Notes under the pieces: model-generated
The model's database searches: none
What the model saw: only the letters and a program-made list of their open reading frames with translations
What the model was told of the DNA's origin: nothing
Part shown: in pieces, positions 1 through 58,228 of the stretch
Layout: every line of letters starts with the position of its first letter
Position numbering within the stretch: position 1 is the first letter of the stretch
From: Psammoneis japonica
Lineage: Eukaryota
NCBI GenBank assembly: GCA_008632985.1
Contig: QPGO01000091.1
Coordinates: 62,001-126,000 of the forward strand
Reading direction: 5' to 3'
Length of the DNA: 64,000 nucleotides
Translations under genes and position numbers: made by a program

Positions 1-65
1 AGGAACTCCGTCTTGTAAAGGCAAAGCTTGAAAGTGCATTAACAAGGAACAAGGAGGCAGAAGCT

Positions 66-1552
66 GTGATGGAGATCAAGTGTGGTGAACTCCGAATTGC
101 ACTCGAAACATCAGACAAGGAGAAAGAGAAACACAAGAAGCAAGCCATCCAGAACATGGAGAATCTCATGGCGACAAAAACAATTCTCTCTCATGATGAT
201 CTAAAGCCTGGAGGCTTGTTGGGGGGGTTTGTTGGGGACTGCACCTGCTTTCCTGCATTTAAATGCAACGAAGCCTTCCTGGACTTTCTTGGTCATGGCG
301 AAGCATGCGATCCCGCGACGGCTTGTGTGAGAACATCAGACGGCACTCCAGGGTCAGCTGGGAAGAAAGGAACGGCAAATCGTGAGAGAGACAGAGCAGT
401 GCAGGAGAGTGGCAATGAGTCAGATTTCTGTGTGCCGCTGGATGATTCAATGGGCGATGGTGAAAATTTTGAGAACTTGACCGAGGATGAAAATGTGGAC
501 CCGAAGCATGGCGGCAGCCGCGAGGGCAGTGGGAAGAAATGGCTCTTGTCTTGGAAGATGGAGTGGCTTGTCTACAATGTGCGCGCTCATTGCGGATTTA
601 CCATGCGACAAATTTGTCCTTTGTTTGGCATGGGGGCACCGGGTCTAGTCTCTGACATGGCACATGGTTGGGCGAACCTGTTGAACGATGCACTCGCTCG
701 CCTCTTTCCAACACCAACACGGAGTCAAATGTTGCGAGCACATCCTGTGAGTGTGATTCGCAAATTTGGTCATGCCCTCATCTTCATGCTTCTAGACGCA
801 ACTGAAGAAGGTGCCCAAAATGCATCAATGAAAACAATGAACTCTGCGTTGTTTTCGGCATGCAAGCATGGATCAACTGTAAAGTGGCTAGTGGGTTCAG
901 ATCCAATTGGAACAACATGGCACAAGTCGACACCAAGAGGACACCCTGGTGGCATCAGTGACCCGGCACAGACAATGGTGACAAAGATTCTTGATCAAGT
1001 TCCGTTTGGGCATGCAGTTGAAGTCGACAAAGGATTCCTGACAGACAACGACTGTGCCATGAAAGGCATCATTTGCACTCGTCCTCAGAAGAAACTGGAC
1101 AACCAAATGCAGCAATCGAAGGCGGACACGGCTTTGACGCAGAAAGTTGGCAAAACAAGAATCCCAACAGAACAAGCCAATGGACAAATGAAACAGTCCA
1201 CTCATTTTTCAACGACAAGATGAAGTTGCTGCAACTTGGATTGGCGGACGTCATGTTCCGTGTCGGATGTCTCGCGCAGAACTTCAAGGTTGGTTTCATT
1301 CAGGAGCAGGATGGAAGGAACGACCAAGAGACTGGGAGGCCTTGTTGTGCAGAGATTCGACATTGCGGAGGGGAAGACAGTGGATCAGTGGACGTGAGAC
1401 CCAATGTTGAGCTTCGGGGAACGGAAAAGGAGATCGAGCGGTGGCAAGAGATTCGAGAAAAAAATGAGGAAATGACCGATCTGGAAGTGTCCGAGAAAGT
1501 TCTAGCTGAGGATTGGCCAGCAAAGCTCAAGGGTGAACTAGACTCACTGTAA
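66..1552 (+). pseudogene. DDE transposase relic (DDE_Tnp_4, ISL2EU/IS5-Harbinger-like), frameshifted near 1205
   Basis: Motif order LDATE...FSA(C)KHGSTVKWLVG.DP.G...G(H)PGGISD...VEVDKGF...RIP.EQANG.MK matches the DDE_Tnp_4 core. The C-terminus continues in ORF 1073-1552. Only 1 Tyr in 385 aa, and positions expected to be Tyr read as Cys/His. Confidence 0.85.
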
Positions 1553-2090
1553 TGTTTGTGATGGTGTGACATTTAGTTCTCCGAATCGGCACCCAGATGT
1601 CGCGACGATCCCGCAGTTGTGCGCCAAAATCCCAGCGCGTTTTGCTCAAGCAGGTGTCACTTCAAAAAGATTTAAAATTATGACACAATCAACAGCTGGA
1701 ACATCATCTACAGAACAAGAGCTTTCTGATGATGTTGCTTTTATTTCCATGCCCCCAACAGATCCGAATTCTCATCCACATGTCCTGCCGACCCCGCACT
1801 TGCGCGCCACAAAATCCCAGTGCGTTTTGCTCGAGCAGGCATTGCTTCAGCAAAAACTGGAATTACAGCACAATCAATGGCAATGACATCATCTGAGGAA
1901 ATGACTGATCTGGAAGTGTCCGAGAAAGTTCTAGCTGAGGATTGGCCGGCAAAGCTCAAGGGTGAACTGGACTCACTGTGATGTTCATGATGGCGCAACA
2001 CTCAGTTCTGTGACCCCAGCAGATCCGAATCGGCATCCAGATGTCGCGATGATCCCGCAGTTGCACGCAAAAATCCTGGTGTGCAAACAA
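1465..2090. repeat. Local direct duplication of the transposase 3' end (about 1465-1655 vs 1894-2085), plus a third partial copy near 1760-1840
   Basis: tgaggaaatgac(c/t)gatctggaagtgtccgagaaagttctagctgaggattggcc occurs twice. A ccgaat...ccc gca.ttg...aaaatcc unit occurs three times. Confidence 0.9.
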
Positions 2091-2214
2091 ATGCAAGTGT
2101 GCCGGTGTCCAAATGAACCGGGGTCTGCCGGTTGCTGAGGTTGGTGAAGGACGAGAATTTCGCTTTTTTGTCGAGTCCTCCAGGGAGCTGCTTCAGCAGC
2201 CCTTTGACACCCAT
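2002..2214 (-). pseudogene. N-terminal fragment of an XPG/FEN1/EXO1-family 5' nuclease
   Basis: MGVKGLLKQL...PVHLDTGTLAF resembles the XPG_N start (MGIxGL...xxIDxS). It is truncated by the duplication. Confidence 0.55.
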
Positions 2215-2524
2215 TCTGAGTGGCCATTTTTGCTTGTGTGTCCGTGTGTGGCAACTTATGTGACAAGAACGACATGGTGAATGCTGCCGCTGCGATGACT
2301 GCTGCAGTGAAAAAATCGAAATGATTTTCAGCTCAAATCCGCTTGACGTACAGTCTGTCTGTCGAACTTGAAATGAAGAAATCGTCGCCCGTTCGTTCGA
2401 TCGAATGAATCATACATCATCATGGCGTCGGGCGGTTCGTCCGGCGGTCGTCACTCGTGTAGCCTTCGCGCGCAACAATCGCGCTCACTTGCCACCCTGC
2501 CTGCGGGCGGCCGCGCGGCGGCGG

Positions 2525-2637
2525 CAGAGGTGCATAAATCGTCTGTTGTCGCCCGATGCGCGCAAACGCGAATTGTGCGCGCGCTGAGTGTGCGAATGCG
2601 CGTGTGCGAACGACAACAGACGATTTGTGCACCTCTG
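2525..2637. mobile_element. Small MITE-like element with 27-bp terminal inverted repeats
   Basis: cagaggtgcataaatcgtctgttgtcg (2525-2551) pairs with cgacaacagacgatttgtgcacctctg (2611-2637), with 1 mismatch. No clear TSD. Confidence 0.6.
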
Positions 2638-4161
2638 GCCTCACGGTGTTTCAGAGCGGCATTGGCTTTGTAGAAATGATTTTTTGTGCCAGCGTAGAAA
2701 TCTACACACATTTCTGGCACACAAAATTCATGCCGACATCAACCTTTTTGTGATCTTTCGACAATGGCGGCGTTCTCGGTTCGCAGCTGTTGCGCCACTG
2801 ACACCTCGTCAATTGTCGCAAAACCTGCAGCATGTTGCTCGTCACCCTCTTCTCAGTTCATTTTTTCCTCTGACATTGCATCTTCTTTGGTCACAATCTT
2901 GAATTTCGATGGCATCAACACAAGGTGAAAATCCAAAGCGGGTGCGAGTTGGTTGTTGGTTTTTAACCCCGCGTTTTCATTTTAAATGCCCACCTGAACA
3001 GCATTTTGCCTTCTCTTTCACTTGATCCCCCAGGGTGTCATTGTTTCGAGCTGCAGTCATCCGGGGAGCCGTTTGCTGAGGCCATGAGCCATGAAGCTTC
3101 TGTTGAAATCTTTCTGTTGGGTGGAGATCACTAAACACGGTGACTGCCCTGTTGGGGTGGACACTCCGATTCGTTTCAAACATTGCCAAAGGAATGAAAC
3201 AAGTCACCCAGTTTCCGTATTTCCTGTTGGAGACTCGAATGAGCAAGCCACACTTGCTAACACCGCGGTCCACTTCGAAGGCAAGATCAAAACATCTGAC
3301 TCTGCTTGTTTGTCTCGTGGAATGAGATGTCTTCTTTAGACAGCTCGAATTTAGAGCCAATAGAAAAATGTAAAAAACACATTAGAACGCCCCATTAACA
3401 TCACAATAGTTTCGTTTTAGAGATGGGAAGGAGCGCCAACCATCAATGGCAGCTCAGCAGCATCAAAGCCATCGGAGCGCGCTCGGTTTCAGAGCTGAGA
3501 TCTGCGTGAATCCATCATTTCGTAAAGAGCATAAAACAGCACCACAACTCATGGACTCATGGGTGATTGATTTACATCAGAAGCCTTTTTCACAACAGTC
3601 ACTGGAAAGGCATAAGACGATGCGATCATCGTCAATCCAGGGTGAGTTCACCGATTTTTGTGATCGAGTGTTCTCTTTGTGACGTCACGTACTAGAAAAT
3701 GTCGTAAAGTCTACACAGAAAACGGAACACCAATTTGAAGCTGCTACTTCGTGGCCAAAATAAGCTTACCATTTGGAGCACATCTAAGAAATGGTCACTC
3801 CAACGAGTAAAGTGAAGGGCTATGGAAGGTGCTCCAAATGCCACAGCAGTTTTGATGTTGTAGTAACATCTTGAAACTTGCAGCTCTGTGTCATTAAGTA
3901 GGATTCCGTAAAATCTACGTGTCATGCATGAAAGCAAGGAATTTTAAAATTATTCGAGGTCGATCGAGCTCCAAAATAATTAATTTTGATTTTAGTCGTA
4001 CAAGTCGAAGCTAATGCCACTCGCGCGTAGAACTGAAACACCGTGGCCTGCGGAACCCGAAGATCGCGGCGCAGGCAGCTGAGCGATCATCACACCATGA
4101 CGAATCCAAATCATCAACGAAACTCCAAGACGTATATGTTTCACTGCAAGTAGGAGGTATC

Positions 4162-4872
4162 ATGGATGATTCATTCGAAGGTGCAATTCATCAAAGTGTC
4201 AGTGATCATTTGGGACACCGACAAGAAGTGGATTCGATCCGCAGCGTGATGGAAGCGTTCAAGCAAGCTGCCAATTTGTGCACCATTCAGCACAAGAACA
4301 AGATTTACGCAACGGGAATGCGTCCAAATCTCAATCTAGCTAGGCCTACACCATCATTTTGGCTCGATTCTGAACAACACATTAGAATTGAACCTTTTGT
4401 AGAAAACAATCAGGCTCAATACTGTGCCATTGAAGATGTTTTAAAGTTGGAACTACACGTGGGTGCTCGAGTGGTATCCTTTTCCGACGCCACACGCACC
4501 AAGTGTGGTCGGTTCGTTGGAGGGTATATTGAATATTACTTTATTTTTGACGATCTCATTCCAGCGAATGGACCAAATAGTTCGGCATTACAAGGGAAAG
4601 TAGGGGTGCTCTATAGGGTTCAACCTGGACTTTTGGCGGACTTGAAACTGGATGCATCGTCTGATGAACGGAACGCTGCAACGCATCCTTCACGTTTCTC
4701 GACCAGTGACTTGCTAGGACCCGTATCATTTACACAAATTTCCTTTATGGCAATGTATGAAACCGGTGAATCTAGCAGCAGTGAATATGATAGTGAGGAG
4801 GACGAAGGCAGCAGTGAATCATCTCAATCTGATAGTGAGGATGACGAAGTCATCGAAGAGAATGAAACCTAG
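4162..4872 (+). CDS. Hypothetical protein with acidic C-terminal tail, copy 1 of a duplicated pair
   Basis: 236-aa ORF with normal composition. It is a paralogue of 11738-12385, sharing FKQAAN.CTIQHKNKIYATGMRP and DASSDERNAATHPSRFSTSDLL. Confidence 0.65.
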   Translation: MDDSFEGAIHQSVSDHLGHRQEVDSIRSVMEAFKQAANLCTIQHKNKIYATGMRPNLNLARPTPSFWLDSEQHIRIEPFVENNQAQYCAIEDVLKLELHVGARVVSFSDATRTKCGRFVGGYIEYYFIFDDLIPANGPNSSALQGKVGVLYRVQPGLLADLKLDASSDERNAATHPSRFSTSDLLGPVSFTQISFMAMYETGESSSSEYDSEEDEGSSESSQSDSEDDEVIEENET

Positions 4873-5529
4873 AGAGCACCCAATTCTACCAGTCGATCAT
4901 GCATTGTTTCAAAGAGGGGTTGCAACTTAAAACTTAAAGAAAAAAATCTACATTTTCTAACATGATAAGCTGAACAGAACGGGGACACAATTCGCACGCA
5001 TTCATCTCGACTACCCAATAGAAACGACCGAATTGAAGCATGCCATATGCATGGAGGCTAGCCGAAAGAATTGGTGGCGTCACAAGTGGGCTTGAGAAGT
5101 TCTCTCGCCAAAGCTGCTGCTCTAGATGCCACCGATGCAAATCGTCCTGACACTGTGAGTTCCTTGAATGAACTGTTCTGGGCACTGGAGAACATCAACG
5201 GCTCCACTCGGAACCGGGCCATGAGGTGATGTCTTTGGCGGGATTTTAAGCAATCAAGACCCGGATTCCCCAAATGCACTGATCCAATTGCACGCGGAAG
5301 TGAGCACAAAAAAACGCTTGAATGCATTCAAGAAGAAGCCAGAGAGTTGGATCTGATTGTTTGTCATTGGTGTGAGAAGAATGTGATGAACTGCTGCCCT
5401 TGCAAGATGCTGCACCAGCAGTGGGCTGCTGCTGCTGCATCCAGTGCTGATGCAATGATTGTCAAGTCCATGTGTTGAAGCAAGAATTTTTAGGCTGGTG
5501 CAGCAACATGGGAGTGTTTGAGCATTGCT

Positions 5530-8500
5530 GTTTCCTGGTGCAACAATGTCCCATGAGTGTGTGGGCAAGAATTGCTCGGCAATGACAAGCTGCAATTTGC
5601 AGCCAGTTTGCTGCTCAGAACTCAGAAATCATTGAAACTTGTTGCACACAAAGTTGATGTGAAATGTGAAGCATTCCAAAGAGTGTCACACAGAACATCC
5701 ACATTCCCTCACATCTTGTCAGTGCACCCCCTCTTGACAAACCAAGAGGCATTTGGCCATGATTGACTCCTTGCTTGTTGTCATGCTGCAAAATCTGCTT
5801 GGTTGTTGCACCCAAAAACTCTGCAAATGATGTTGCCCAATCTGCCAAAACTGACAGACCAAGCACAGAGAATTTTTGTGCATCGCCACATTGTTTGTGG
5901 TTCTGTGAGGTGCTTGGGACAAGAGATTTCACAAGTGCTGCACCCGCCTGTCATCATTTTGGGTTGGGTTGTTCACAGCCCTTCTTGTGGATATCAGCTG
6001 GGTGTGCACATCTGCATGACCTGACCAATGAAAAGAGATGCTTCTGTCCATTGCACCAACGAACATTTTTGAAGCACTTGGGCAGGGGTGCAGCAGCCAA
6101 GCTCATGATTTCTGGTGCAACTGGGCAGTGTGCTCAGCATGCTGATGGCAACAAAGCCCAGCTGCCAACTGCTGTTCATTTGTGACAGACCTTGGCTGGT
6201 AGCCCAATGTTGTTTGCACACTCCATTGGCTTCTTCTGAGCAGTTGACTCTCCATGTGCTGCCCCATGTTAGCATGAAACAATGCCAAAAACAAGTTGTT
6301 GCACTGAGCGGCTCCAGCTGACCAATGTGCCCTCACTGCCACCACACTCATCAGCTCTGTTGTGTGCTCCAATCCATTTTCTCATGCTGCAAATGAAGCA
6401 CACCTGGAGACACCACCAATGTGGCTGCTGCATGTCCAAATTTCTGGCACGATGTTGCTGTTGTTTCAGGGCCAACCACAGCAGTGCACCACATGTGCAC
6501 AAACAAAACTCACACAGTTGAAACAGAATGAGCCATTCTCTTGCATCTTTCATCAACACTCTCATCTGCATTGCAACACCAAGAAAGACATGCTGCAGCA
6601 AGGCAGTGGCAGCAAAGCACTTGTGAAAGTGCTGCTGGCCTTGTGCAAATTTGAGTGGGCTGATGCTGGGTGCAACTGCCACTTTGTTGTTGTTTTGCTT
6701 CATGTTTTGAACACAGAAATGCACACAAATTTGGACTTCATGCCAAATGGCACAAAACTCTCCCAGCTTGTTGTCCAGTTCATTTCAGGCATGCTGGCAC
6801 AGAGCCTTGTGCAACTCTGCCCCAACACACATTTGCACGCAAGTGTGCCACAATGACTTGGGGGGGCTCCAGAGTGTGCACTCATGGAAATCTGGCCAAA
6901 ACTCCCAAATGTGCTGATCAAACAGACTCTGTAGCACAAATTCTGCCCAAATTCTTTGGCCAGCAGCTGGCCAGCATCTGGCCAGAGATGTCCCCCAGCC
7001 CCATCACGCCCAAAGATGCAAGATCTTCCAACATCAAAGCAGTGCACAATGGCGTCAAGCATCTTCCCATTTTTGTGCTTGCTGCAGGAGTGTTGTTCCT
7101 GCACCCAGTTGGCTTGTGTGGCTCTCCCAGATTGTTTTGGTGCAAGGAGATGTTTGTTTTGTCATGAGCAGAGACATGGAGCGACAAATCATTGTTGCAC
7201 ACAAAAGCAACATTCTCCAGTTTGTGCTGACTTGTGGCTTGTTTGTTGCCACCAGAGTGAAGTTGCTGGCATGTGGTGCAGCCAGCTTGCCACCCTCCAA
7301 TTGTCTCATCAGCATTGTCAGGCCACCAGCACATTTGACCTTGAAGCTGACCTTCCAAAGCAAGGTGACATCCTTTGTCAAAACATTTAAAAAAAAGCAT
7401 GTCAGAATGAGGATCTGTTTTGGAGAAGAACACTTGCATCTGCAATGAGTCAATCATTGCTGCTGTGACCCATCACTTGAGAGGCAACCCGAACATCCAA
7501 CAACAGAGTTGCACAACAGCAATGCCAGCTTTCCAGCAGCATGTGTCATGGTGCAAGTTGAACACCAGCCCAGGGCATGGTTCATGCACCACCACCTGAG
7601 GACAGCACGGGCATGGGTGTGCTTGATCATGTGTCATGCGTTGCCCCCCAGGGTTCAGTTTTTGAGCCAAAGTGTCTGCTCTGCACCTCATCTCTGAACT
7701 TTGCACCTCCACATGGGATGTGCACATGGGCTGCCAATGCCTTTCAATCTGCAGCAGTTGAGTGCTTTCATGAGCAGAACCCTGTGCCCTGTCTTGTGCT
7801 CAGATTCAAAGTCTTGAGATCAGCTCTTGGATTCCCATGTGAGAGCTCAAAGCCAAGAAACTCTTCCAGCCATGCCAGTTTTGTGACAGTCTTGGCCACT
7901 TCCTTGGCACATCAAAGCAACTGTTTCAAGTTGCTGAACCCAGTGTGTTGCTTTGCTTCTTTGCTGCTGGGTGCAAGAGCTTGCAGCAACAATGTTGGGG
8001 AGATGGGTGTGGCATTTCAGCACCCATTGTTGCTGTGATCCCAGAGAGTCTGTCATTGGCTGCTCCTGCACAGATTGTTCTCAGTTGCTGTGGTTGACTC
8101 CTTCTCTTTCATTTTTGCCACTCAAGTCAGAGTGGAGAGTTTTGACTCTTCTGTGTGTTTGTTGTTTTTGCATGATGCAAGACCTCTTGTCAAGAACTGT
8201 CTCCATTGGATGTGTGGTCTTTGCAGGGGCATTGTGGCTTTTCTCTGCAACTTGGACAGGAGCTTGAAATGGTGGGGCTGTTGCAGTCTTTTTGATGGCT
8301 GTGGTTCTTTGTCTTTGAACAGCTCCATTGGATTTTTTCATTTCCTGAGATCCTTGCTTTTGCAAAAAGACCACAGTCAAGGTGTTGTGTCCATTCTCAT
8401 CATTGGAGTGCTTTCTGCCAGTGCATGTCATCTGCTTTTTTTCTGCTGGCTTTTCTTTTGACAATGGCGGTGGCAGGTTTGGCACATGAGACAACGTTGA

Positions 8501-11500
8501 CTGTTGTTGTTGTCATGAGTGTGGTCATTGTCATCATTGTCATTGTTGTCATTGTCATGCTGTCATTGTTGTTGTTGTTGTTGTTGTTGTTTGGTGGCAT
8601 GGCATTTGTGCTGCCAGATGGTCATTGTTTGCTGGCAGTTAGAGCTGTTGCTTTTTTCTGCAATTGATCACCATCATCCCCATTTTTGGCTTTGGCACTC
8701 TTGCCCTTTCCTCTCCTCATGACAGTTTCACCCTCTGGCAGCAGCAACAACATGAGCTTCTTTGCTTTTTCCAGCGGTTTTTGGTGGTGTTCTGCACACC
8801 ACAGCCTCACCACTGCTGTGCACTTCCATCAGCAGCTTGCTCATGATGCAATCAAAATCCCACTGGGTTGTTCTTGCTGGCAGAAGCAATGCAGCACAAA
8901 TGACTGAGATGAGTTTCTTCTGCCCAAACAAGCATGACACAGCATTGCATCAAGAACTCCCTTGCCATGACTTGGCCCTCTTCTTCAGCTGCAGCTGTGT
9001 CCTTGAGAATGTTCAGCATTTCATTGGGACAGTGCTCACAATCTACATTTCCACACCCAATGTGTTGAACTTGCATCAAACAGCGTCTTGTGCAGCCAAA
9101 GAACCTGGGTGCAGAAGGCCTTTTCTCTTGCACTTTCTGCCCTTTCTTCCAAAGTCAAGATTGCACTTCACTTTCTCCTTCCTCAACATCTGATGTGCCT
9201 GCCTGAAAGCAATGCCCACATGCACTCAATGCACAAGGTTTGACATCCTTCTAAAGACTCTTTGCTGCTGGGTTCACTCATCAAACAAAATTGACAAATC
9301 ATTGCAACACAGACTCCACATTTGTGCACTCAGTGTCCAAAAAGTGGGAGATGAGTTGGCACTGAGCAACCTTTGCAGACAGATGCATTTGGTCCTTTGA
9401 CAATCTCAGCTTCAAAGCTGGTGAGTTCTTTGTTGAATCCATCCACCCCAACTCCAAGGGGGTTTTGCAACATGTGTCCATTGCTTGTTTTCTCACATGC
9501 AAGAAAAGCCACCACAACCACAGTCCAAATTTTGCAGCTTCAAATTAGAGCCATTCTTGCAGCTGACTTGACATCTTTCACAACGATGCTGCCCATGCTG
9601 GCTTTGCCATTTGGTCCAATGCACATTGAAAGAAAGATGGAATCTCCTGACATCAACCAGTCAACTTCTGCATCAATGGCCAACTTTGCAACACAAGAAC
9701 CCAATTGAGCTGGTGTCAGCACTTCAAATGAAACAAGTCCCTTGTTTGCAAAGTGATGCAATGAACGAATGTTTGCATCTTTGTTGCAAAGCAGCCTGTT
9801 GGCAACTGCAGCCACTTCATTGCATTCATCAACCTGCGTGTCTTTTTTTGAAATTTGTTCACTTGTGCAGTGTGTTTGGCTGCATGGTGGTTGTTCTCAT
9901 CTGACAGCCAGAGATTGCATGTCTCAGCCCACATGACAATGGGATGCATCACTTTGTTTGCTGTCTCTGCATGCCAACAACAAGATCTTTGCTTGGGTGG
10001 GTGTTGTGCAACTTGGTTGATGTTGTGCACAACATGCCAATTGACCAGAAAATTGGACAAGACATGAGACATTTGTTCAGCGACAGCACTGTCTCTGGTG
10101 AGTGTGATGATGTGTCATGTGCGCACTTGCACCCAACAAGATTTGCACCTGTTGCACACTTCACATGACACCCTGGCTGTTGCATGACACCAGTTGCTGC
10201 TTTGTCAACATTTCACAGCATGTCTGCATTCTGACTGGCAACAGCAGCTTTGTGCTTCATGAGAAACATTGCCAAATCACCCAGGGCAGGGCTCCTCTGT
10301 CTGCTGCACTGGACTTTGTCTTGAGATGACAAGCAGATGGGTGGGGTGATGCTGCTGGGGGATGAAAGAGTGAAAGCAATTTGCACACAAATGCAGAATA
10401 AATGGCATGTCCATTCATTGGCACAATGTGGGATGTGAGTCATTCTCAGGTTGGTTTTTGAATTGAAGTGAAAACTGCAGAGTGAGGCTGAAAAGCTCGC
10501 GCATGTGCACTCCACACAAAACTGTGTGGTGTGCCAAACACAAGACTCACTGACAAGCTGCCCATCTTGCACTGCTCTGCATTTTGTCAAACTTCAGCCT
10601 GGTCATTGCTGCAGCATGCACTCACTGGGCATGATTGTTCTGGACCCAAACCATCACCACTGAGACAGTGTAAAAAGTCCACAAAGGCTGGATTTTGTTG
10701 AGAGTTTCACAACTTGTGCATTTGGCAGATGCCTGACAGAAGCACATCAAGGGCAGTGCCACTCTGCCTGCCCCCCCCCGCCCCCTGTCAAAATGGCACC
10801 ATCAGCTGTGCAATGATCATGTCCTCCTCTTAAGAAAAGGCGGGGCACCTCCCAGAATGACCCCAGAGGTCATTCCCTCATTGTCAGACAAGGCTTTCCC
10901 CCCAACTCTGCCTCATCATGGATGCCCCCAGCAACCAAGCCCTTGGCATTGCTCAAATGACTCAAACAGAAGCATGCACATCAAGTGCAGCAGCAAAGTG
11001 CCAGCAAACACATCATGATCCCCAGCTTGAGCCGAGCCACAGAAAACGTCATTGCCAAACACCCGTTGTGGGTTCATCAAGTGCAGCAGCAAAGTGACAC
11101 ATGTGTGACATCCCCCTCTTCCTTGGCACACATGATCAAGCTTGCACCCAATCACAAGGAAAACCTTGTCATCAAGCACCCAGCTTAAAAAAAGTTGGAA
11201 ATGAGAAAAAGAGAGGGAGCTTTGGCAGCTTCTGACCAGGTGTGGTGTTCCCTGGGTGTCATCATGAAACATGCAAGATGCAAAGATCTGATCATTGTGT
11301 GTGTGTCTGCAGTGTGTCATGCTTGTGCTTGTGAACAAGAAGCCCAACACATGACAGTTGGGCATGGACAAATCATGAACTGCAGAGTTTCGCTGCAAAA
11401 GTGCCAAACAAGAATCTCACAACATTTGAGTTGAGTTCAGCTCCCATCTCCTGTCTCAACAAAGTGTTGCTGGAAAAGTGCGAGAAGAAGAGGGAAAAGA

Positions 11501-11600
11501 TTTCACAGACTGCCCAAATGCTGCTTTTTGGCAAGATTGACCCAAGCATTTGCTGGGGGATCACTGTGGTGCAAATGAGGTCAACGAATTTTTCGCCACC
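5530..11600 (-). mobile_element. Heavily mutated repeat or DNA-element relic encoding an XPG/FEN1-like nuclease (about 9300-10200)
   Basis: TA and CG are almost absent. Minus-strand fragments read AKLAIDAEVDWLMSGDS (XPG I-region-like), NPLGVGVDGF (H3TH-like) and KCATGANLVGCK (possible N-domain). Termini are not identifiable. Confidence 0.5.
8495..8592. repeat. (TTG)n/(TCATTG)n microsatellite
   Basis: gtcattgtcatcattgtcattg...ttgttgttgttgttg is visible directly. Confidence 0.85.
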
Positions 11601-11737
11601 GTCCGTGTTTGATCCGCTAGAGCGAGAGCCTCTGAGCGGAACATAATAATGTTATTCGCCCAAAGTTTTGGAGTTTGGGAATACTCGTATTTCGAAATAC
11701 TCCAAGATACGCAACAGTGTCACTGCAAGTAGGTATC

Positions 11738-12385
11738 ATGGATTCATTAGAAGGTGCAATTCGTCTATGTGTAAGTGATCATTTGGGACACCGACAAGAA
11801 GTGGATTCGATCCGTAGCATGATGGAACCGTTCAAACAGGCTGCCAATGTATGCACCATTCAGCACAAGAACAAGATTTACGCAACCGGAATGCGTCCAG
11901 ATCTAAATCTAGCTAATGCACTGTATTGGCGCGATGCAGATGAAGAAAAATATATCATAATGAAACCTTTTGTAGAAAACAACCAGGCTCAACGCTGTGC
12001 CATTGAAGATGTTTTAAAGTTGGAACTGCATGTGGGTGGTCGAGTGGTATCCTTTTGCGACGCCACACGCACCATTTGTGATGACTTCGATGAAAGCACG
12101 GGGGACATTGAATATTGCTTTATTTTTGAAGATCTCATTCCAGACAGTGAACCATATAGTTCAGCAGTAGAAGTGACCGTGCGGGTGGTGTATAGGATTC
12201 AACCTGGACGTTTGGCGGACGTGAACCTGGATGCATCGTCTGATGAACGAAATGCTGCAACGCATCCTTCACGTTTCTCGACCAGTGACTTGCTAGACCC
12301 CGTAATATTTTGCCCTATTACTTTTACGGCAATGTATGAAATCGATAGTGAGGATGACGAAGGCGTCGAAGAGAATGAAACCTAG
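11738..12385 (+). CDS. Hypothetical protein, copy 2 of the duplicated pair
   Basis: ATG at 11738 aligns with 4162. Homology continues about 600 bp beyond the stop. Confidence 0.65.
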   Translation: MDSLEGAIRLCVSDHLGHRQEVDSIRSMMEPFKQAANVCTIQHKNKIYATGMRPDLNLANALYWRDADEEKYIIMKPFVENNQAQRCAIEDVLKLELHVGGRVVSFCDATRTICDDFDESTGDIEYCFIFEDLIPDSEPYSSAVEVTVRVVYRIQPGRLADVNLDASSDERNAATHPSRFSTSDLLDPVIFCPITFTAMYEIDSEDDEGVEENET

Positions 12386-12834
12386 AGAGCACCCAATTGT
12401 ACGAGGCGATCATGCGTTGTTTCAAAGAGGGGGTTGTTGCAACTTAAAAACTTGTCGCAGAAAAAAATTCTCGATTTTCTAGCGTGATAAGCTAAGAAGA
12501 ACGGGGACACAATTCGCAAGTACCGCATTCATCTTGACCCAATAGAAAAGACTGAATTGAAGCATAACATATGTATAGAGGCTAGCCGAAATAATTGGTG
12601 GCGTCACAAGTTGGCTTGAGAAGTTGTATCGTCAAAGCTGCTGCTCAATGTCACCGATGCAAATCGTCCTGAAAATGTGAGTTGCTTGAATGAACTGTTC
12701 AAGGCACCGGAACATGTCAACTGCTAGCTGTGTCCACTCGGAACCGGAGGTGGTCATTGTCGGGGGTTTTACGCAAGACCCGGATTCCACTGCACTCTAG
12801 TCCAACTACGCATGGAATCAAGCACCACAGAAAT

Positions 12835-12990
12835 GTTTGTCATCGGTGTGAGAACAATATAATGAGCTGCCCTTGTATGATGCTGTGCCAGCTGTGCCGT
12901 TGCGTCTAATGCTGTTGCAAGGATTTTCAAATAAACGATTGGAAGGCATTCGACAAGCAGGAGTGCAAGAAGCTTAAGGCTGGTACGGGC
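12835..12990 (+). pseudogene. MYND zinc-finger relic (a more degraded copy lies at about 5360-5510)
   Basis: Translates as CHRCENN...LCQLCRCV*CCCKDFQINDWKAFDKQECKKL, which has MYND spacing with an internal stop. Confidence 0.55.
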
Positions 12991-13564
12991 GACACGAGAG
13001 AGCTTGAAGATTGGCGCAGCCAGTCTTGGTATGATCAGCCCGAAGGGAACACAGAGAACCTCATTCCCCATCCCCATTGCGGGTTCAGACGAAAGTAGCG
13101 AACCGGTATTTAGGGGAGAAATGCTTGTTCTATACTTGATCAATGCCAACTTGGATTTGGCTCGGGGCGTGGAGATGCTTGGGAAAAAACCAAAAGGCTT
13201 ACCACGCGAGGCTGCCGGTGTTGCCACGTGAGTTTACAAGGGGCACTAGCTAGAGGTCAAAGATGACTAAAATGGGGTGAACGAATAACAGAGATAAACG
13301 GCCTTGCGTTTGTCTGGTAGCCGGGAGAGCTCCAACATAAACCGACTTGTCGACAGAACCAAAAGGACTTCCAAGTGCTAAATGAGCTTTGCTAGCTAGT
13401 ATTAAGAGTGCAAAATGAGCGGCAGGTAGGTGCGAGATCTACTGCTTCTAGCTAGCTGCCTTTCTTGATGATCAGTACAATTGCGATACATAGTCGTACC
13501 CATGGATATATATCCATGGTCATACCAACACAATTGCCCGCGTGGCATTGACGACGTCAAGACA

Positions 13565-16500
13565 TTAATTACCACTCAATAGATTCATCATTTCACGTAA
13601 AAAGAAGCCACCAGTGGCTTCACGGAAGACATCCTCACTTTCTCCAGCGGAGGGGAACAAAGGTTTGAGGAGGACACGACGAAAGTTGGCGCGTGCGCTC
13701 TTTGCCTCAAAGAGGACGCGTAGAGAAGGGTGTTCGACCCGAAGTTCCGGTGCCATTGTCGCACGGATAAAATTGCAGAGGTTTTGGAACAACCTATACT
13801 CTTCAATCCACATTTCAATTTGCGACATGCCTCGGCCAGACTCGTCCAAACGATAAACCAAGTCAGCCATTTCAAGGCAAGTTTCCGAGGACAGGAAGCA
13901 GACAGACAAATCCAAAACCGGGTGGGCTTTTAGGCTATCCATCAATATTCCATGTCGCACGATAATGGCGACATATCCAATATCTGCTTCCTTAATTTGG
14001 AGAAGAACCAATTGAGTTTGCAGTTGAATCAGGCTCATGATGGTGTGCTTTACTTCGGCCAACATTGGCATTTTGCAGCCGTCGGTGGAAGAATCTTTGC
14101 GACGAAGGTGAGCACGCTCTTGGGACGTCAACTGTAAACCAGAGAAAGTTTGCAAAGCGCTCTCTGTCCAACCGACTTCCTCACTTCCAGTCAGGTCGCA
14201 ATATGTACAACCTAAAATTGAACTGGTTCGAACGGCAGAGAAGAATCCGTACGCCCCCTTCCTGATAAACAAAAGCCCTTTACTCGGTTCCAGTCTCCAA
14301 TCGCAAGCCTTCACTGGAACGGAGAAGATTAAGTCCTTTGCAATGATATCCCTGGCATATCTGACTCCAGGTAAACTAACCTTAACAGTGATTGCAAAGC
14401 TGTTGGACGGCTCCACGCGGAAGGCGTCTGGCGGGATTGGATTAGTTCCGAAGAATTCAGTTTTAGGCTGCACTTGAATCATAATACAATCGTCCGATTC
14501 ATCGAAGATAGAAAAGCAGATAAGCTCCATCGTGGAATCACGTTCCTTTGACATGGGAGCTGATGTTGTCTGTGTAGCACAGCCTTGGCACCCACTGAGC
14601 AAGGAGACAAGACGTCCCATCTTCTCATTGCTGGCAATGAACTCTTCAACCTTGATGTTATGAATCTTTTTCGGGGCGATAGGATCCTTGCAGCACAGCG
14701 AAGCCGTCCAACATGACTCCTCGACGAATCTGCGCCTGCACCAAAAGAAGAATCTCGTTGCTTGATTCTCTTCGTCAGAGGCGGGCTGTTCAAGCCAGAC
14801 CCCAAAAGTAGTGATAGATTTTAGTTCAACGTACACAGTTGGGGTTGGCGAGGATGTTGCAGAACATAGGATCTTGCGAAGAACACCATCATCGACTTGG
14901 AAGCTCATGAGCGAAACATCAGTAGAGTATGGCGGTGTCAGAAGGTCTCTGAGAACGCCTTCTTCGGCGTGTTGTTTGGAAGTAGTGTCGAGAACACTAC
15001 TGCAACCATGCCTGCAAAGCAATGCGACTGCTTTGCCGCACAGGTTATGTCCACTGAGCTGGTCCGACGTATTTCTACTCAGACCCGTTAAGTGCCTAGC
15101 TATCGGCCCATCCTCTGCAAGGTTTAGATTAGAATCCGAGTTTGTAGCAAGCCAGACAATCGTCGAATCCTTTCTGTTTAATGGCACGGGTGGTTCGTAC
15201 TCGGAATGGGCTATCTTGCAAGCTGAGGAGGTGCAGGCGTTGCCTTCGTATCCCATTGCCCGAAAGCGGAAGAGAGTTGTCCACCAAGAGGGGTTTGATT
15301 CCAGTAGACTCGCCTTGAGATAGTTTCTGCTCCCACCGTATCTTCTCCCATGAAGAAAGGACGTTGTAAATAGAGTCCCCCCTGCCACCAAGAGCGGGCG
15401 GGTGACAAGCAGTAGCGTAGACAGACCAATGTGATCAGCAACGTTACTCGTTGTGATGACATCAAAGCAGGCAGAGGAATCTGACTTATCTGAAAGCCCG
15501 CAACCCGGTTTGACAATTGACAAATTCCGCTCACTCAAGGAAACAGGCTTCTTGGGCATGTCAACAGCTAATGTCGACGACAGCGACATCGGTTTGATGA
15601 GTTGTACGCCCCATCTACCAGCCTCGGGAGCTTTGCGGGTAACCACGCCAATGATGCCGTTCAAACCTGGACTCTTCTGAAGCCCTCCTGTTACTACGAG
15701 GGCACCGCGAGACAGCTGTGACGCATGAAAGCCCTTCTTGGGCCTTATCGCAGTTGCGGCTTCGTCATCCCAACCAAAACGCGTAGCGTTAAAAGTTAAG
15801 CAAAACGTTTGGCAATCCAAAGAGGAAAAGGTCCAGGAAACTTTCTGGCGATTCTCACGAGCCTTAGCTAACCACGTCTTGAACACTTTGTAGCAACTGT
15901 CTACCGCAGTTGATCCTGCTGTGGGGAGAAATATAGGAAACGCCGAGAAGCTATCTGTGCCGTAGTGTAAATCATACTTCTCTTGACTCTGAAAAAGAGT
16001 TGGATTAACGTGGTAGTATTTCTCGTTCAAAACGGTACCGCTAGAGCTGGGAAGGAAGATTCCAGTCAACAAGTGTTCTTCGACCTCTGTTTCCCATACA
16101 GATCGTATCTCGGGTTCCACTCTACGCTCATCAATGTTGATGGAAAGGTGGGTACTCAAAGTCAAAGCTCGATGTTTCTTGATGAAGCTCCGCAGTCGAG
16201 ACTTGGCAGTCTCTCCATCAACGTCGGCATCACCAGCCGCGGTCAGTAACTGAATGCCCTTCTCAAGAAACGTGACGTGCCGCATTTCTTGAGTGTGCTC
16301 CCAATGTGTCAGATGGGTTTCGCTGGAAAGCGGAAAGAACACAAGCCACTTCTCCCAAGTCTTTCGAAGCTTACCAAGCAAGCCCGGCTCGGCACAGCGC
16401 CATTTCCAGGTCGATCCGTTCTCAGTAGATTGGTCGATGAGCTTCCTCAGAGAAAGCCGCAAAGCCGAAAGTTGGTGGTCCAGCAATGCTGTTGAAAACC

Positions 16501-16954
16501 ATATTGCGAAAATGGTTTCATCTGCCTCGGTCGAAGCTGGCGAATCAAACAACATATCCAATATTAGAATATTCCTTGCCAAAACATAAATGTCGTAATC
16601 ATTGATCACCAGTTCAACGGATCCGATGCCTTTAGTCGAGCCAAGCGAGAAGAGGACGTTGCGGAGATCTCCACATGCCAAACAAAGCACACGGAGGTCC
16701 TGGACTTGCTCAGAACTTCTCTCCAACGCCTTTTCGAAATTCGGATCAAAGTTGTGGTATATCCACGAGTTAGGCTTCATGAGTTCAACGTTCTCAAAGT
16801 TATGGGAAATATTTCGGTAAAAGATGTTTCTTGCGGGACTGTTGCCAATCGCATAGTAGTACTGCTGAAGTTTGATGAGACGGCACGGCGACAGCGGATA
16901 GTTGGCGTACTCTGCCTCTGGCAGAGCGTTGCTGTGTCTTCTTGAGTCTGACAT
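13565..16954 (-). CDS. DUF4470-domain protein (methyltransferase-like fold) with an SH3/KOW-like insert
   Basis: YYYAIGNSPA, LCLACGDLRNVLFS, NDYDIYVLARNILIL and FDVITTSNVADHIG are DUF4470-family motifs. First ATG at 16954. Confidence 0.8.
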   Translation of the reverse strand: MSDSRRHSNALPEAEYANYPLSPCRLIKLQQYYYAIGNSPARNIFYRNISHNFENVELMKPNSWIYHNFDPNFEKALERSSEQVQDLRVLCLACGDLRNVLFSLGSTKGIGSVELVINDYDIYVLARNILILDMLFDSPASTEADETIFAIWFSTALLDHQLSALRLSLRKLIDQSTENGSTWKWRCAEPGLLGKLRKTWEKWLVFFPLSSETHLTHWEHTQEMRHVTFLEKGIQLLTAAGDADVDGETAKSRLRSFIKKHRALTLSTHLSINIDERRVEPEIRSVWETEVEEHLLTGIFLPSSSGTVLNEKYYHVNPTLFQSQEKYDLHYGTDSFSAFPIFLPTAGSTAVDSCYKVFKTWLAKARENRQKVSWTFSSLDCQTFCLTFNATRFGWDDEAATAIRPKKGFHASQLSRGALVVTGGLQKSPGLNGIIGVVTRKAPEAGRWGVQLIKPMSLSSTLAVDMPKKPVSLSERNLSIVKPGCGLSDKSDSSACFDVITTSNVADHIGLSTLLLVTRPLLVAGGTLFTTSFLHGRRYGGSRNYLKASLLESNPSWWTTLFRFRAMGYEGNACTSSACKIAHSEYEPPVPLNRKDSTIVWLATNSDSNLNLAEDGPIARHLTGLSRNTSDQLSGHNLCGKAVALLCRHGCSSVLDTTSKQHAEEGVLRDLLTPPYSTDVSLMSFQVDDGVLRKILCSATSSPTPTVYVELKSITTFGVWLEQPASDEENQATRFFFWCRRRFVEESCWTASLCCKDPIAPKKIHNIKVEEFIASNEKMGRLVSLLSGCQGCATQTTSAPMSKERDSTMELICFSIFDESDDCIMIQVQPKTEFFGTNPIPPDAFRVEPSNSFAITVKVSLPGVRYARDIIAKDLIFSVPVKACDWRLEPSKGLLFIRKGAYGFFSAVRTSSILGCTYCDLTGSEEVGWTESALQTFSGLQLTSQERAHLRRKDSSTDGCKMPMLAEVKHTIMSLIQLQTQLVLLQIKEADIGYVAIIVRHGILMDSLKAHPVLDLSVCFLSSETCLEMADLVYRLDESGRGMSQIEMWIEEYRLFQNLCNFIRATMAPELRVEHPSLRVLFEAKSARANFRRVLLKPLFPSAGESEDVFREATGGFFLREMMNLLSGN

Positions 16955-17425
16955 CGCGAAGTTGTGCTTGTTATGATTCTTCTGATGTGCCGAGGTGAAA
17001 CTGGACTTTGAGTGGCGATCCACTTTCCTACTGGAAATGAAAATTTCACAGCCAATCAAAATTCAAAAAGTTAGGATCGTATCGTTCGCCTTTCTTCCGT
17101 AACACCCGAAAGACGCCTGCCACACCTTTTTCGTGAGCGGGCGCGACCACGCAATGCATCTTGGGTCACGATTTTTTGTTACAGTATCATTGGTCGCTGA
17201 CTGTAGTCTCGAAACCAGTGCACCGTTCAAGTAGTTTCTATTGACGTCGTTCTGGAATCGCTTTAACAGTGCGAATTCGTGTGAGCTTTTCAAATTATCC
17301 AGACCCGCTTCGCTCGTGATTCCCCATACTGTGTCTTTGAATACCGGTAGTTTATGCAACATTGGTAACGCCTTTACCGAAAAGATTCATGTTCGCGTGA
17401 TCTGACTTTGGGTCGTAGAGTGTAG

Positions 17426-28024: not shown

Positions 28025-28679
28025 GGTCGAGTTGACGGCTGTTGTAGTCGTTGCTTTTTTGTGATCCCATCATCAGTTTTGCGGTTTTCGCCGGAGGAAG
28101 CACAAGGAGCGACGTACGTACGGTACGAAGATTTGGCCCAATCTAAAAAAAATTTGAAAATTCCCAAAAGCAAAAAGCAAACTTGGAAGCCCATCACTCT
28201 GTAACTATCGATCTGACGCTCGACACGTCGACACTTAGGTCGTATCGTTGTACACCCTCCATGGCGTTTCTTCAAACTTTTCTGGTTTGAACTGAGCGGT
28301 CGTGGAAGGCAAAAACGTCAATCTTTGAGATCATCGCGCAAATCTTCTGATGTCAAATGATTTCAAGCGTCTTTGGCATGTGATGATGATGAGGCTGCGG
28401 CAACGGAAATGCCGGGTTTGGAATGCGATGAGTGCAATGGAATGATGATTTGCACACGAAACACCCATTTCACTCCAATTGACGAGCGCATGCACTGACT
28501 TTGTGTTGAATCTTTTGCAGAAGCAGAGTTTTCCCGTCGATTCGCAGGTGAGTTTGTCACCGCGACGATTTTCACTCACAGTTCCGTGGAACAAAATGCG
28601 TGCAACGATGAGCTTCATGTGAACCAAAGAGCAGCAAATCTTGTGTTGCGTGCATTGTGCACCGAAAGGAGCTGTCAAA

Positions 28680-30230: not shown

Positions 30231-30369
30231 GAACAGAATTTGCCATTCGCAAAATTCTCATGAACTTTTTTGACTCTCTGTCAGCCCAAGGGTGAAGGCA
30301 CTGACTGCAAGGAATCCTCATTTGGCAAAGTGAGGTTGCGGTGTTTGGGCCCCACACTGCATTGGAAAT

Positions 30370-34957: not shown

Positions 34958-34965
34958 TGCTGAAT

Positions 34966-35229
34966 AGCTTCATCGTGGAACCCCGCAAATGCGCGGGGAC
35001 CCTCCTGTGCCGCAGAGGTCTACGCTCATTTTTGTGTGTGGCACTGAAACATGTAGCCTGCATGCGCAAAACTGGCACAGTTTCTACGACAAAATTTCGA
35101 AAAAACGCCTAGTTCGCGAGATGGCTCTGGTGCAAAACGCACGTAAAGAGTCCCCACACATGCACGTGCAACTCTGCACATTTCCGGGTTACGGGTCCCC
35201 GCGCATTTGTGGGGTTCCACGATGAAGCT
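34966..35229. mobile_element. MITE of about 264 bp with 37-bp terminal inverted repeats
   Basis: agcttcatcgtggaaccccgcaaatgcgcggggaccc (34966-35002) pairs with gggtccccgcgcatttgtggggttccacgatgaagct (35193-35229), with 1 mismatch. Confidence 0.8.
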
Positions 35230-57848: not shown

Positions 57849-57883
<35 letters not shown>

Positions 57884-57905
57884 TCTGCTGGCTCTCTCTG
57901 CCACT
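52460..57905. mobile_element. Unidentified hypermutated repeat relic (TA- and CG-depleted) with an internal duplicated segment
   Basis: Composition as in the other mutated domains. About 54370-54450 resembles about 56925-57010 (actcatctgccatttggaca). No domain recognised. Confidence 0.45.
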
Positions 57906-58228
57906 CTAGCTAGCTACAGCAGAGTGCTTCTCGAGAGTAGAGAGAAGCAGAGAGAGTGCTGTAGGGAGCGCGCGTTTCTTCACACATCGTCATTCGTGAC
58001 GGTGCGTTGTTTCAAAAATTTGAACTCTTGCGAGTCGTGTGTGATCATACCGTAACTGCAGTACGGGGCTGTACCGTACATCCTTACATAATGGAGCGTT
58101 GAAAGACAAAAATTCCCATTCTTGAGAAGTCGTGCCACCACCGACAAATGATCATCCCGTCCCTTGGACGAAACACCTGAACAACTTCCCACTTTTTTGG
58201 TTTTTGACCATTTGTAAGGACCGGCATT

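Follow-up and report, generated by a model that had tools for sequence, protein, structure and literature searches.

Location-dependent TpA and CpG conversion in the tail of one copy of a duplicated unit in Psammoneis japonica

We analyzed a window of 64,000 nucleotides from Psammoneis japonica (assembly GCA_008632985.1, contig QPGO01000091.1, positions 62,001 to 126,000; all coordinates below are those of the window) and found a block nearly free of TA and CG dinucleotides whose mapped left edge falls inside one copy of a duplicated unit. Conversion of TA and CG to TG and CA in this copy was one-sided, confined to the tail, equal on both strands and later than the duplication, and it went by location, not by sequence identity or duplicated state. 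We consider it probable that TpA and CpG were converted in place, by domain, and that the left edge of the block came to lie within the copy-1 tail after the duplication.

The duplicated unit and its genes

An earlier note on this DNA had proposed that a unit at 4118-5530 is duplicated at 11693-13020. Local alignment bore this out, pairing 4118-5528 with 11693-13014 collinearly from gene body into tail, and blastn aligned 4122-5269 with 11699-12788 at 77.8% identity over 1185 columns. The three sequence examples quoted in the note were all present at their places. The features of the region are as follows.

4118..5530, forward strand: copy 1 of the duplicated unit (local alignment, blastn), with a read depth of about 58-87, that of a single copy
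4162..4872, forward strand: gene A1, an intact 236-aa ORF of unassigned family with normal TA and CG content
4873..5039, forward strand: non-coding, unconverted 3′ flank of A1 (9 TA and 7 CG in 170 bp; differences 4 vs 3)
5040..5315, forward strand: rim with thinning TA and retained CG (site counts against copy 2; HMM TA edge at 5124)
5316..5530, forward strand: fully converted end of copy 1, homologous to copy 2 (site counts; HMM CG edge at 5316)
about 5358-5500, forward strand: putative MYND zinc-finger relic, converted, within the copy-1 tail
5531..11584, strand not assigned: core of the mutated block, with TA and CG nearly absent and TG+CA raised about 1.7-fold (244 vs 144-146 per kb)
11693..13013, forward strand: copy 2 of the duplicated unit, of normal composition throughout
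11738..12385, forward strand: gene A2, an intact ORF of 215 aa counted from the ATG that matches the start of A1
12834..13013, forward strand: putative MYND zinc-finger relic, unconverted, in the tail of copy 2, its translation interrupted by an in-frame stop

We take the tail relic to be of the MYND type from its Cys pattern and the MYND consensus. The A1 and A2 products share 74.9% amino-acid identity over 211 aligned codons (dN/dS 0.65, dS 0.23), and judged by this dS of about 0.23 the duplication is old. The C-terminus of A1 is acidic and rich in Ser, Asp and Glu. The protein had no match in the Pfam scan or in the atlas and a single distant homologue (P0001, 38% identity); that A1 is a host gene is an assumption.

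One-sided conversion in the copy-1 tail

Differences between the copies were classed by single base, a change from TA or CG in copy 2 to TG or CA in copy 1 being counted as forward. Over the gene body and 3′ flank (4118-5039) the differences were symmetric, with 14 forward and 17 reverse, whereas the tail (5040-5540) held 15 forward and none in reverse (binomial p=6e-5, from the small number of 15 polarised sites). The forward changes comprised TA>TG (5), TA>CA (3), CG>TG (5) and CG>CA (2), and they extended from 5041 to 5509, where the homologue in copy 2 is unmutated. Counted as dinucleotides, body and tail (13:11 vs 0:15) also differed in Fisher's test (p=3.6e-4). The note's observation is confirmed in this respect.

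The gene bodies had been said to retain TA and CG, and so they did: over 4118-5039, copy 1 carries 42 TA and 41 CG and copy 2 carries 43 TA and 44 CG. Coding selection is not the reason for this retention, because the non-coding flank at 4873-5039 keeps its 9 TA and 7 CG as well. Transversions between the copies (52 of 677 aligned bases in the body, 40 of 420 in the tail) and purine/pyrimidine identity (88% in the body, 84.5-87.6% in the tail) are similar in both parts, which indicates that the tail is of the same age as the body. Since there is no outgroup for the tail, the polarity of its changes rests on their asymmetry and on composition. The inference that duplication alone did not direct the changes held, with both duplicated bodies untouched and the tail of one copy converted.

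Shape of the left edge

HMM segmentation placed the left TA edge at 5124 and the left CG edge at 5316. The loss of CG at 5316 is a step: of the copy-2 CG sites upstream of this position 36 are kept and 6 converted, whereas after it none is kept and 6 are converted (p=7.5e-5). For TA, the kept and converted sites numbered 23 and 6 in the body, 3 and 3 in 5040-5315, and 0 and 5 after 5316. This trend from body through rim to end was significant (p=4.6e-4), and the body compared with the 5040-5315 zone alone was not (p=0.16).

Within 5040-5315, the 11 TA sites of copy 2 are divided among 3 kept, 3 converted, 4 otherwise changed and 1 gapped, while its 12 CG sites include 9 kept and 1 converted. 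Clean conversions in 5124-5315, a zone of few informative sites, amount to one CG and no TA. In 5316-5530, by contrast, none of the 7 TA and 8 CG sites of copy 2 survives (11 changed to TG or CA, 2 otherwise changed, 2 gapped), and copy 1 itself retains one TA and no CG. The left edge thus consists of two nested edges, for TA at about 5040-5124 and for CG at about 5316, without a smooth gradient. The tail had been described as progressively converted; the TA trend agrees with this description, and the step in CG does not.

Mutated segments across the window

Between 5316 and 11584 we counted 2.2 TA, 4.9 CG and 244 TG+CA per kb, against 40, 54 and 144 in normal DNA. The block, 6.5 kb long (5124/5316 to 11584/11617), has a sharp right edge at 11584-11617 and a read depth of about 57-68, corresponding to a single copy. 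No Pfam family was found in its 27 ORFs or 6 read-through frames, and no homologue in purine/pyrimidine space was found inside the window. The HMM recognized five TA-depleted segments in the window, sized 1.8-8.7 kb. All five CG-depleted segments lay inside four of these or no more than 25 bp from their edges, and the fifth TA-depleted segment (1-3217) lacks a CG-depleted core. TA was reduced to 1-7 per kb in mutated segments (40 in normal DNA) and CG to 5-13 per kb in their cores (54 in normal DNA).

In all eight mutated segments the gain of TG+CA per kb equalled the loss of TA+CG per kb, with strand symmetry. The TG share was 0.513 in block 1 and 0.500 in block 4; TA-only domains gained 30-40 TG+CA and lost 31-37 TA per kb at a TG share of 0.47-0.53. 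G+C in the block (0.45-0.52) is equal to that outside. The rho value of TA is about 0.03 in depleted DNA and about 0.6 in the normal DNA of the window, where TA is already under-represented.

Rims that still contain CG, 100-190 bp wide, occur at 52528/52709, 62177/62296 and 63809/63942, and most TA edges elsewhere in the window are abrupt, the change taking no more than 100 bp. A fixed boundary accounts for such edges more readily than diffusive spreading does. The earlier suggestion of targeting by proximity or chromatin spreading over about 500 bp is supported only in part: the left edge shows two nested edges and no gradient, and a TA-free rim around a CG-free core recurs at other block edges. 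Copy number is not the trigger today, because a roughly 10-fold repeat at 3500-4167 has normal TA and CG and the mutated block is single-copy. As regards a viral or transposon origin, Pfam identified a DDE_Tnp_4 ORF in the TA-only domain 1-3217, the cores have no Pfam family, and resident, unmutated DNA contains a homologue of the converted tail.

Protein sequences and contigs from run X1

The direction from TA and CG to TG and CA, as the earlier note had it, is supported by the one-way tail, the mass balance and the loss of tyrosine. Tyr makes up 0-0.7% of residues in ORFs of TA-free domains and 1.8-4.7% in normal genes. At 5 of 11 columns in which diatom homologues conserve Tyr, the ORFs of TA-free domains have His or Cys; in one relative of 85% identity, all three Tyr correspond to Cys, Cys and His in the window protein. 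The Tyr loss gives the direction without recourse to the duplicate pair. TA-free domains with normal CG hold still-open ORFs of 406-543 aa.

A contig from sequencing run X1 covers 4856-6932 with 5 differences from the window, and the contigs of this run reproduce the block and its edge. At position 5046 the window has T and X1 has C (TA to CA). Of the 23 X1-window differences listed in 5040-11617, 5 fall on residual TA or CG sites (2% of positions), and in run X1 all five read TG or CA (p=9e-5). This comparison concerns the one sample in which the sequence was found, which may be the source of the assembly itself, and the 23 differences are those among the rows listed, with 46 further rows outside the list. 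The residual-site differences give only a hint of polymorphism at such sites, and the X1-window differences could also reflect heterozygosity or assembly error.

Comparison with known systems

The closest known case is the TpA hypermutation of Bigelowiella natans. Gene structure in B. natans does not match the long intron-free ORFs seen in the window, and the homologues of the window proteins are from diatoms. The preprint describes a regional hypermutation, TpA>TpG/CpA, that affects NCLDV and virophage DNA after integration; in mutation-accumulation lines it was regional, confined to TpA and on both strands, with a de novo rate about 1000-fold above background, and mutation rate extended one hypermutable region about 21 kb past the annotated virus (Mettrop et al., bioRxiv 10.64898/2026.01.13.699255). 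The P. japonica window resembles it in TpA-confined transitions on both strands (8 TA>TG/CA in the tail, 5 to TG and 3 to CA, none in reverse), in discrete kb-scale regions, in long-term TpA depletion with a gain of CpA and TpG, and in that gene content does not define the region in either genome. The same preprint reports DDE transposases enriched in TpA-depleted coding sequences, and here the DDE_Tnp_4 ORF sits in a TA-free domain. The two differ in extent, as depletion is near-complete here (rho about 0.03) and reaches 0.45 in the NCLDV region described there. TpA loss goes together here with a CpG>TpG/CpA loss that is just as complete and occupies a nested core, unlike that report, in whose text "CpG" does not occur. 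De novo rates were measured in B. natans, whereas we observe an end state together with the residual-site hint.

For the edge effect, the closest analogue is leakage of repeat-induced point mutation (RIP), which in ascomycetes is reported to reach adjacent single-copy DNA (PMC9453070; PMC3105345). The likeness is one of behaviour only: a DNA-level transition mutator also alters neighbouring non-target sequence. In RIP, C becomes T chiefly at CpA, which makes TpA and leaves DNA AT-rich, whereas here TpA is destroyed and G+C unchanged. RIP requires a RID/DNMT4-type methyltransferase and acts before meiosis; duplication sets it off, and both copies are mutated. Here the differences between the duplicated bodies are symmetric (14 vs 17) and one tail only is converted. 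We rejected fungal RIP on the fall of TA, the unchanged G+C, and the undepleted duplicated bodies and 10-fold repeat.

Decay of CpG through 5-methylcytosine offers a further comparison, since CpG>TpG/CpA change here affects silent, element-like DNA with an abrupt edge (7 forward and 0 reverse in the tail; 0 of 8 copy-2 CG kept after 5316). Unlike plain CpG decay, the loss is always found together with a TpA loss whose domain is slightly larger, and depletion goes as far as 5-10% of normal. In one report, diatom transposable elements are CpG-methylated, with DNMT5 methylation, and diatoms have a RID-related DNMT4 whose function is unknown (PMC9998398).

Alternative explanations

Gradual decay of old, methylated, untranscribed DNA, through spontaneous 5mC deamination and an ordinary context bias of replication or repair at TpA, with no dedicated targeting or enzyme, is unlikely to account for these data. 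CpG decay is general in methylated repeats, the methylation of diatom transposable elements would allow it, and normal window DNA is already TA-poor. Yet 5316-5540 keeps none of 15 TA/CG sites against 20 transversions in 183 aligned bases (two lineages together), and the inferred rate at those sites is tens of times above background. No ordinary bias is known to cut TpA down to 5% of normal; the open ORFs in domains with normal CG show that TpA loss can finish first; and the 1000-fold de novo rate of B. natans sets a precedent for hypermutation. Slightly less probable is that the converted tail was part of a targeted element, the MYND relic being element-borne and copy 2 an older copy split off before mutation. 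Both copies carry the tail as a pseudogene relic, an indel run (5279-5360) lies just ahead of the fully converted part, and the majority of TA edges elsewhere have the sharpness expected of element ends. Against this stand the collinear homology from gene body to tail with equal purine/pyrimidine divergence, and TA conversion that begins at 5041, well ahead of the indel run. Even so, the same sequence would be mutated at one locus only, so that position dependence would stand and only the word "host" would fall.

It is very improbable that all of copy 1 was hit and that purifying selection or gene conversion from copy 2 preserved TA and CG in its body. Both ORFs are indeed intact, but 167 bp of non-coding DNA past the stop codon are unconverted, the dN/dS of 0.65 indicates weak constraint, the copies are 22% different without a conversion tract, and the body differences are symmetric. 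We give still less credence to ADAR-like editing of a transcript or viral intermediate before integration, with the tail arising by chance or as a base-call or assembly artefact. ADAR hyper-editing of repeat-derived dsRNA resembles the present changes in A to G conversion with a preference for 5′ U or T, and base modifications can give systematic base-call errors. However, ADAR edits RNA, whereas these changes are genomic and strand-symmetric (TG share 0.50-0.51 in two large cores) and reach resident sequence to which the tail is contiguous and homologous; the 15-to-0 split is not chance. Run X1 contigs, perhaps from the assembly's own sample, reproduce block and edge, and comparison with protein relatives of other origin shows Tyr replaced by His or Cys, as expected. 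ADAR-type editing through an RNA intermediate was accordingly rejected, there being no strand asymmetry and the conversion entering contiguous duplicated DNA. The 5′ U preference of ADAR is mentioned, citing others, in bioRxiv 10.64898/2026.01.13.699255.

Proposed mechanism and implications

Under in-place conversion by domain, two dinucleotide-specific transition processes, TpA to TpG/CpA and CpG to TpG/CpA, would have run near completion on the DNA itself within kb-scale blocks. A TpA domain somewhat larger than the CpG domain would leave a core free of both dinucleotides within a TA-free rim. The left edge would lie in copy 1, within its non-coding or pseudogene 3′ part, converted after duplication, the paralogue and both gene bodies being spared. 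The domain may be one of silenced chromatin or methylation, bounded about 190-250 bp past the A1 stop and about 120-150 bp before the A2 start. It may have begun with an inserted foreign element that leaked outward or by filling the A1-A2 interval; with no Pfam family in the core, a foreign element is an assumption. CpG loss could proceed by 5-methylcytosine deamination, spontaneous or driven by a RID-like DNMT4, and TpA loss by an adenine-deaminating or equivalent activity, as proposed for B. natans. More speculatively, one dual A/C deaminase, or an oxidase of 5-methylpyrimidines (T, 5mC), might lie behind both arms.

Composition alone cannot separate DNA that arrived free of TA and CG, through foreign bias or pre-integration editing, from DNA rewritten in place. 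The duplicate pair serves as an internal control, intact at one locus and fully converted where it enters the block at the other, and it thereby places the process on genomic DNA and after the duplication, gives its direction, and shows that it is the domain that is targeted, irrespective of homology, copy number or foreign origin. Methylation and chromatin edges are predicted near 5100-5320 on the left and near 11585-11617 on the right. We tentatively raise the possibility that diatoms have an active, still-running defence that erases both self-complementary pyrimidine-purine steps, TpA and CpG, by deamination to TpG/CpA in a marked chromatin domain, resident DNA included, with a TpA arm that reaches about 100-200 bp further. 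Such a defence would correspond in function to fungal RIP while acting on TpA in the opposite sense, and it would be akin to the TpA hypermutation newly reported in one chlorarachniophyte but wider in scope. If the process is an active defence, TpA hypermutation would gain a second major algal lineage, in which it is tied to the loss of CpG.

One-sided conversion in a duplicated unit

Local alignment of the window paired positions 4118-5528 with 11693-13014, and blastn gave 77.8% identity between 4122-5269 and 11699-12788. Each copy of this unit carries an intact open reading frame (gene A):

4162-4872, gene A1, intact ORF in copy 1
11738-12385, gene A2, intact ORF in copy 2

The two products share 74.9% amino-acid identity, with a dS of 0.23 and a dN/dS of 0.65. 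Gene A matched no Pfam family and no entry in the atlas search, and the one homologue found was 38% identical; that it belongs to the host is thus an assumption. The non-coding stretch 3′ of each ORF ends in a MYND-finger-like relic, interrupted in copy 2 by an in-frame stop, which we take to be a MYND finger from its cysteine pattern and the MYND consensus. MYND sequences also occur in the 1164-aa DUF4470 gene beside copy 2 (13565-17059, minus strand) and in a MYND + MSS51_C gene (40358-41770), and together with the relic at 12834-13013 they may form a locally expanded family.

We classed the mismatches between the copies by their context in the assumed ancestor. In the body of copy 1 (4118-5039), 14 sites read TA or CG in copy 2 and TG or CA in copy 1, against 17 in the reverse direction. 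In the tail (5040-5540), which runs into a TA- and CG-poor block, the counts were 15 against 0 (binomial p=6e-5; Fisher test against the body, p=3.6e-4), comprising five TA>TG, three TA>CA, five CG>TG and two CG>CA changes. The three example sites from which the earlier note had read this direction were all correct when checked in the window sequence, and symmetry of the TA/CG differences between the copies, which that note had named as the outcome contrary to its reading, was found in the body alone. Transversions were similarly frequent in both parts (52/677 in the body and 40/420 in the tail), which indicates a tail no older than its body. Where the tail is converted, none of 15 TA and CG sites survived, compared with 20 transversions among 183 bases with both lineages summed, from which we infer a rate at TA/CG sites tens of times above background.

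Mutated domains across the window

The window has a G+C content of about 48% and long, intron-free ORFs, and it looks eukaryotic. A diatom is the probable source: the atlas cluster nearest to its WbsX glycosyltransferase has Bacillariophyta as its commonest phylum, and Attheya, Cyclotella and Thalassiosira supply the named homologues of its DDE_Tnp_4 ORF. A 500-bp dinucleotide profile combined with two-state segmentation defined the following domains:

TA-depleted: 1-3217, 5124-11617, 28252-36924, 52528-57906 and 62177-63942
CG-depleted: 5316-11584, 31758-33290, 35696-36789, 52709-57931 and 62296-63809

Each CG-depleted segment falls within a TA-depleted one or no more than 25 bp from its edge. 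This nested layout suggests that the process acting on TpA extends beyond the one acting on CpG or begins before it. At several edges, a TA-free rim of 100-190 bp that retains CG encloses the CG-free core (noted for 31758-33290, 35696-36789, 52709-57931 and 62296-63809). The rise in TG+CA equals the loss of TA and CG in the per-kb counts.

Table. Dinucleotide counts per kb by type of DNA
Normal DNA: TA 40, CG 54, TG+CA 144
TA-only domains: TA 3-10, CG 41-56, TG+CA 175-185
Cores (depleted in both TA and CG): TA 1-7, CG 5-13, TG+CA 229-244

The ratio TG/(TG+CA) was 0.42-0.55 across eight mutated segments, the two large cores among them (0.51 and 0.50); a share this close to half indicates that both strands were hit equally. 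A scaffold gap of 279 N lies at 58813-59091, and ORF calls across 58229-59173 are unreliable.

Shape of the domain edges

The earlier note had described a progressive gradient into copy 1, a description that was only partly right: TA has a softer edge from about 5040, and CG is lost in a step at about 5316. Upstream of 5316, copy 1 kept 36 of the copy-2 CG sites and converted 6; after it, none were kept, 6 were converted and 2 were gapped (p=7.5e-5). Copy-2 TA sites were kept at 23 positions and converted at 6 in 4118-5039, split three and three in 5040-5315, and yielded five conversions with none kept after 5316. Residual TA steps in the domain include those at 5046, 5059, 5123 and 5247. The trend in TA loss was significant (p=4.6e-4), with the middle zone 5040-5315 alone non-significant (p=0.16) and the zone 5124-5315 nearly devoid of informative sites. 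On its right side the block ends sharply at 11584-11617, approximately 120-150 bp upstream of the A2 start codon. Elsewhere, sharp TA edges are accompanied by CG edges 100-190 bp further inward (52528/52709, 62177/62296 and 63809/63942), and the two nearly coincide at 57906/57931. The sharpness seen at most edges speaks for a fixed boundary; at copy 1, the less sharply defined left edge fits some leakage.

Read-derived contigs from one sample (run X1) reproduced the left edge, with a single piece spanning 4856-6932 with 5 differences. Among 23 listed differences between X1 and the window in 5040-11617, from a longer list with 46 further rows, five fell at residual TA/CG sites, a class comprising 2% of positions (p=9e-5), and X1 reads TG or CA at all five (5046, 6271, 7053, 9766 and 9838). 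Run X1 may be the assembly's own sample, and heterozygosity or assembly error could account for the differences; those at residual sites hint at a recent process and may reflect ongoing conversion or heterozygosity. Among sequencing data sets, only one sample (X1-X3) matched, and no RNA set was listed.

Content of the block and rejected alternatives

Homology between the copies ends at approximately 5530/13013, also when transitions are ignored by means of a purine/pyrimidine alphabet, which rules out the block as a mutated copy of the sequence from 13013 onward. A BLAST search in that alphabet (4000-11700 against the window, with a reversed-sequence control) gave no match exceeding the control past approximately 5467/12932, and thus no sign of a duplication hidden by transitions in the block. 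No Pfam family was found among 59 ORFs of at least 90 aa in the mutated cores, or when the two large cores were read through in 12 frames, stops being written as X. The mutated blocks showed no DNA similarity to each other, and terminal repeats were not found in purine/pyrimidine space. Inside the block, a low-complexity TG-rich tract at 8459-8600 has one frame with a long run of Cys codons; reads are seemingly cut at 8521-8600, and purine/pyrimidine self-matches pile up on the tract.

The earlier note had argued that duplication alone does not target a sequence for conversion, and this was borne out, since the gene bodies are duplicated yet untouched. Copy number is likewise not the trigger today: the repeat at 3500-4167 has normal TA and CG at about 10x single-copy depth (read depth 620-730, compared with about 60 elsewhere), whereas the unit and the mutated block are at single-copy depth (approximately 57-94). 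Sparing of the copy 1 body by selection or gene conversion was rejected because the 167 bp of non-coding DNA 3′ of the A1 stop codon are unconverted, with 9 TA and 7 CG; coding selection is therefore not the reason the body was spared. Constraint on the gene is also weak (dN/dS 0.65), the copies are 22% divergent and show no conversion tract, and the body differences are symmetric. RNA editing or an artefact was rejected on the TG shares of the two large cores (0.51 and 0.50), the 15 to 0 split in the tail, the contiguity of the converted tail with resident DNA to which it is homologous, the X1 contigs, which repeat the block and its edge but may stem from the assembly's own sample, and the His and Cys found where protein relatives have Tyr. 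The repeat at 3500-4167 has the TA-free transposase domain on one side and copy 1 on the other; it belongs to a family of about 10 copies, shows as many as 12 variant contigs, and has loose ends at 4045, near which the repeat ends.

Tyrosine loss in open frames

Three long ORFs lie in TA-free domains of normal CG content:

3-1223, DDE_Tnp_4 ORF, in domain 1-3217
29896-31527, minus strand, 543-aa AAA-like ORF, in domain 28252-31757
33445-34716, minus strand, ankyrin ORF, in domain 33291-35695

Such frames stay open because the stop codons TAA and TAG need TA. Tyrosine makes up 0-0.7% of residues in ORFs of TA-only domains, compared with 1.8-4.7% in 11 ORFs of normal composition. We aligned the DDE ORF with 17 homologues and counted columns with tyrosine in at least half of them; at these 11 columns the window ORF has Tyr 1, His 4, Cys 1, Phe 2 and other residues 3, and it kept tryptophan at 5/5 Trp columns. 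P0053, a database protein from another public contig that is 85% identical to the 543-aa ORF, has only 3 tyrosines in 371 aa; the window carries Cys, Cys and His at these positions, exactly as TAY changing to TGY or CAY would yield. The tyrosine loss thus gives the direction of change independently of the duplicate pair. P0053, from a related copy or organism, appears to be less far along in the same decay, and the three CG-normal domains look like an earlier stage of it. The ankyrin ORF was considered as a paralogue of the normal ankyrin gene at 37555-39540 and proved not to be one.

Proposed mechanism and comparison with known systems

The reading we favour is a mutation process that acts in place on the DNA, goes by domain and has two arms; its enzymes and chromatin state are inferred. 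The CpG arm would resemble deamination of 5-methylcytosine; diatom transposable elements are methylated via DNMT5, and a RID-related DNMT4 of unknown function occurs in many diatoms (PMC9998398). The TpA arm would match the regional TpA>TpG/CpA hypermutation of B. natans, which was measured in mutation-accumulation lines and for which its authors proposed an ADAT2-like adenine deaminase (bioRxiv 10.64898/2026.01.13.699255). The B. natans process shares motif, strand symmetry and regional confinement with the window. The window is set apart by its organism, by how complete the depletion is and by its coupled CpG loss, CpG having 0 occurrences in the searched text of that paper. The edge effect at copy 1 behaves like the leakage of RIP in fungi (PMC9453070); fungal RIP differs in that it creates TpA and needs duplication as its trigger. 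The domain may have arisen in two ways, by leakage from an inserted element, the "spreading" of the earlier note, or as a silent domain filling the interval between A1 and A2.

In the literature searched, mostly outside subscription journals, we found no description of a joint TpA and CpG collapse or of TpA hypermutation in diatoms. The duplicate pair serves as an internal control that fixes the direction of change, its substrate (DNA in place) and its targeting rule (position).
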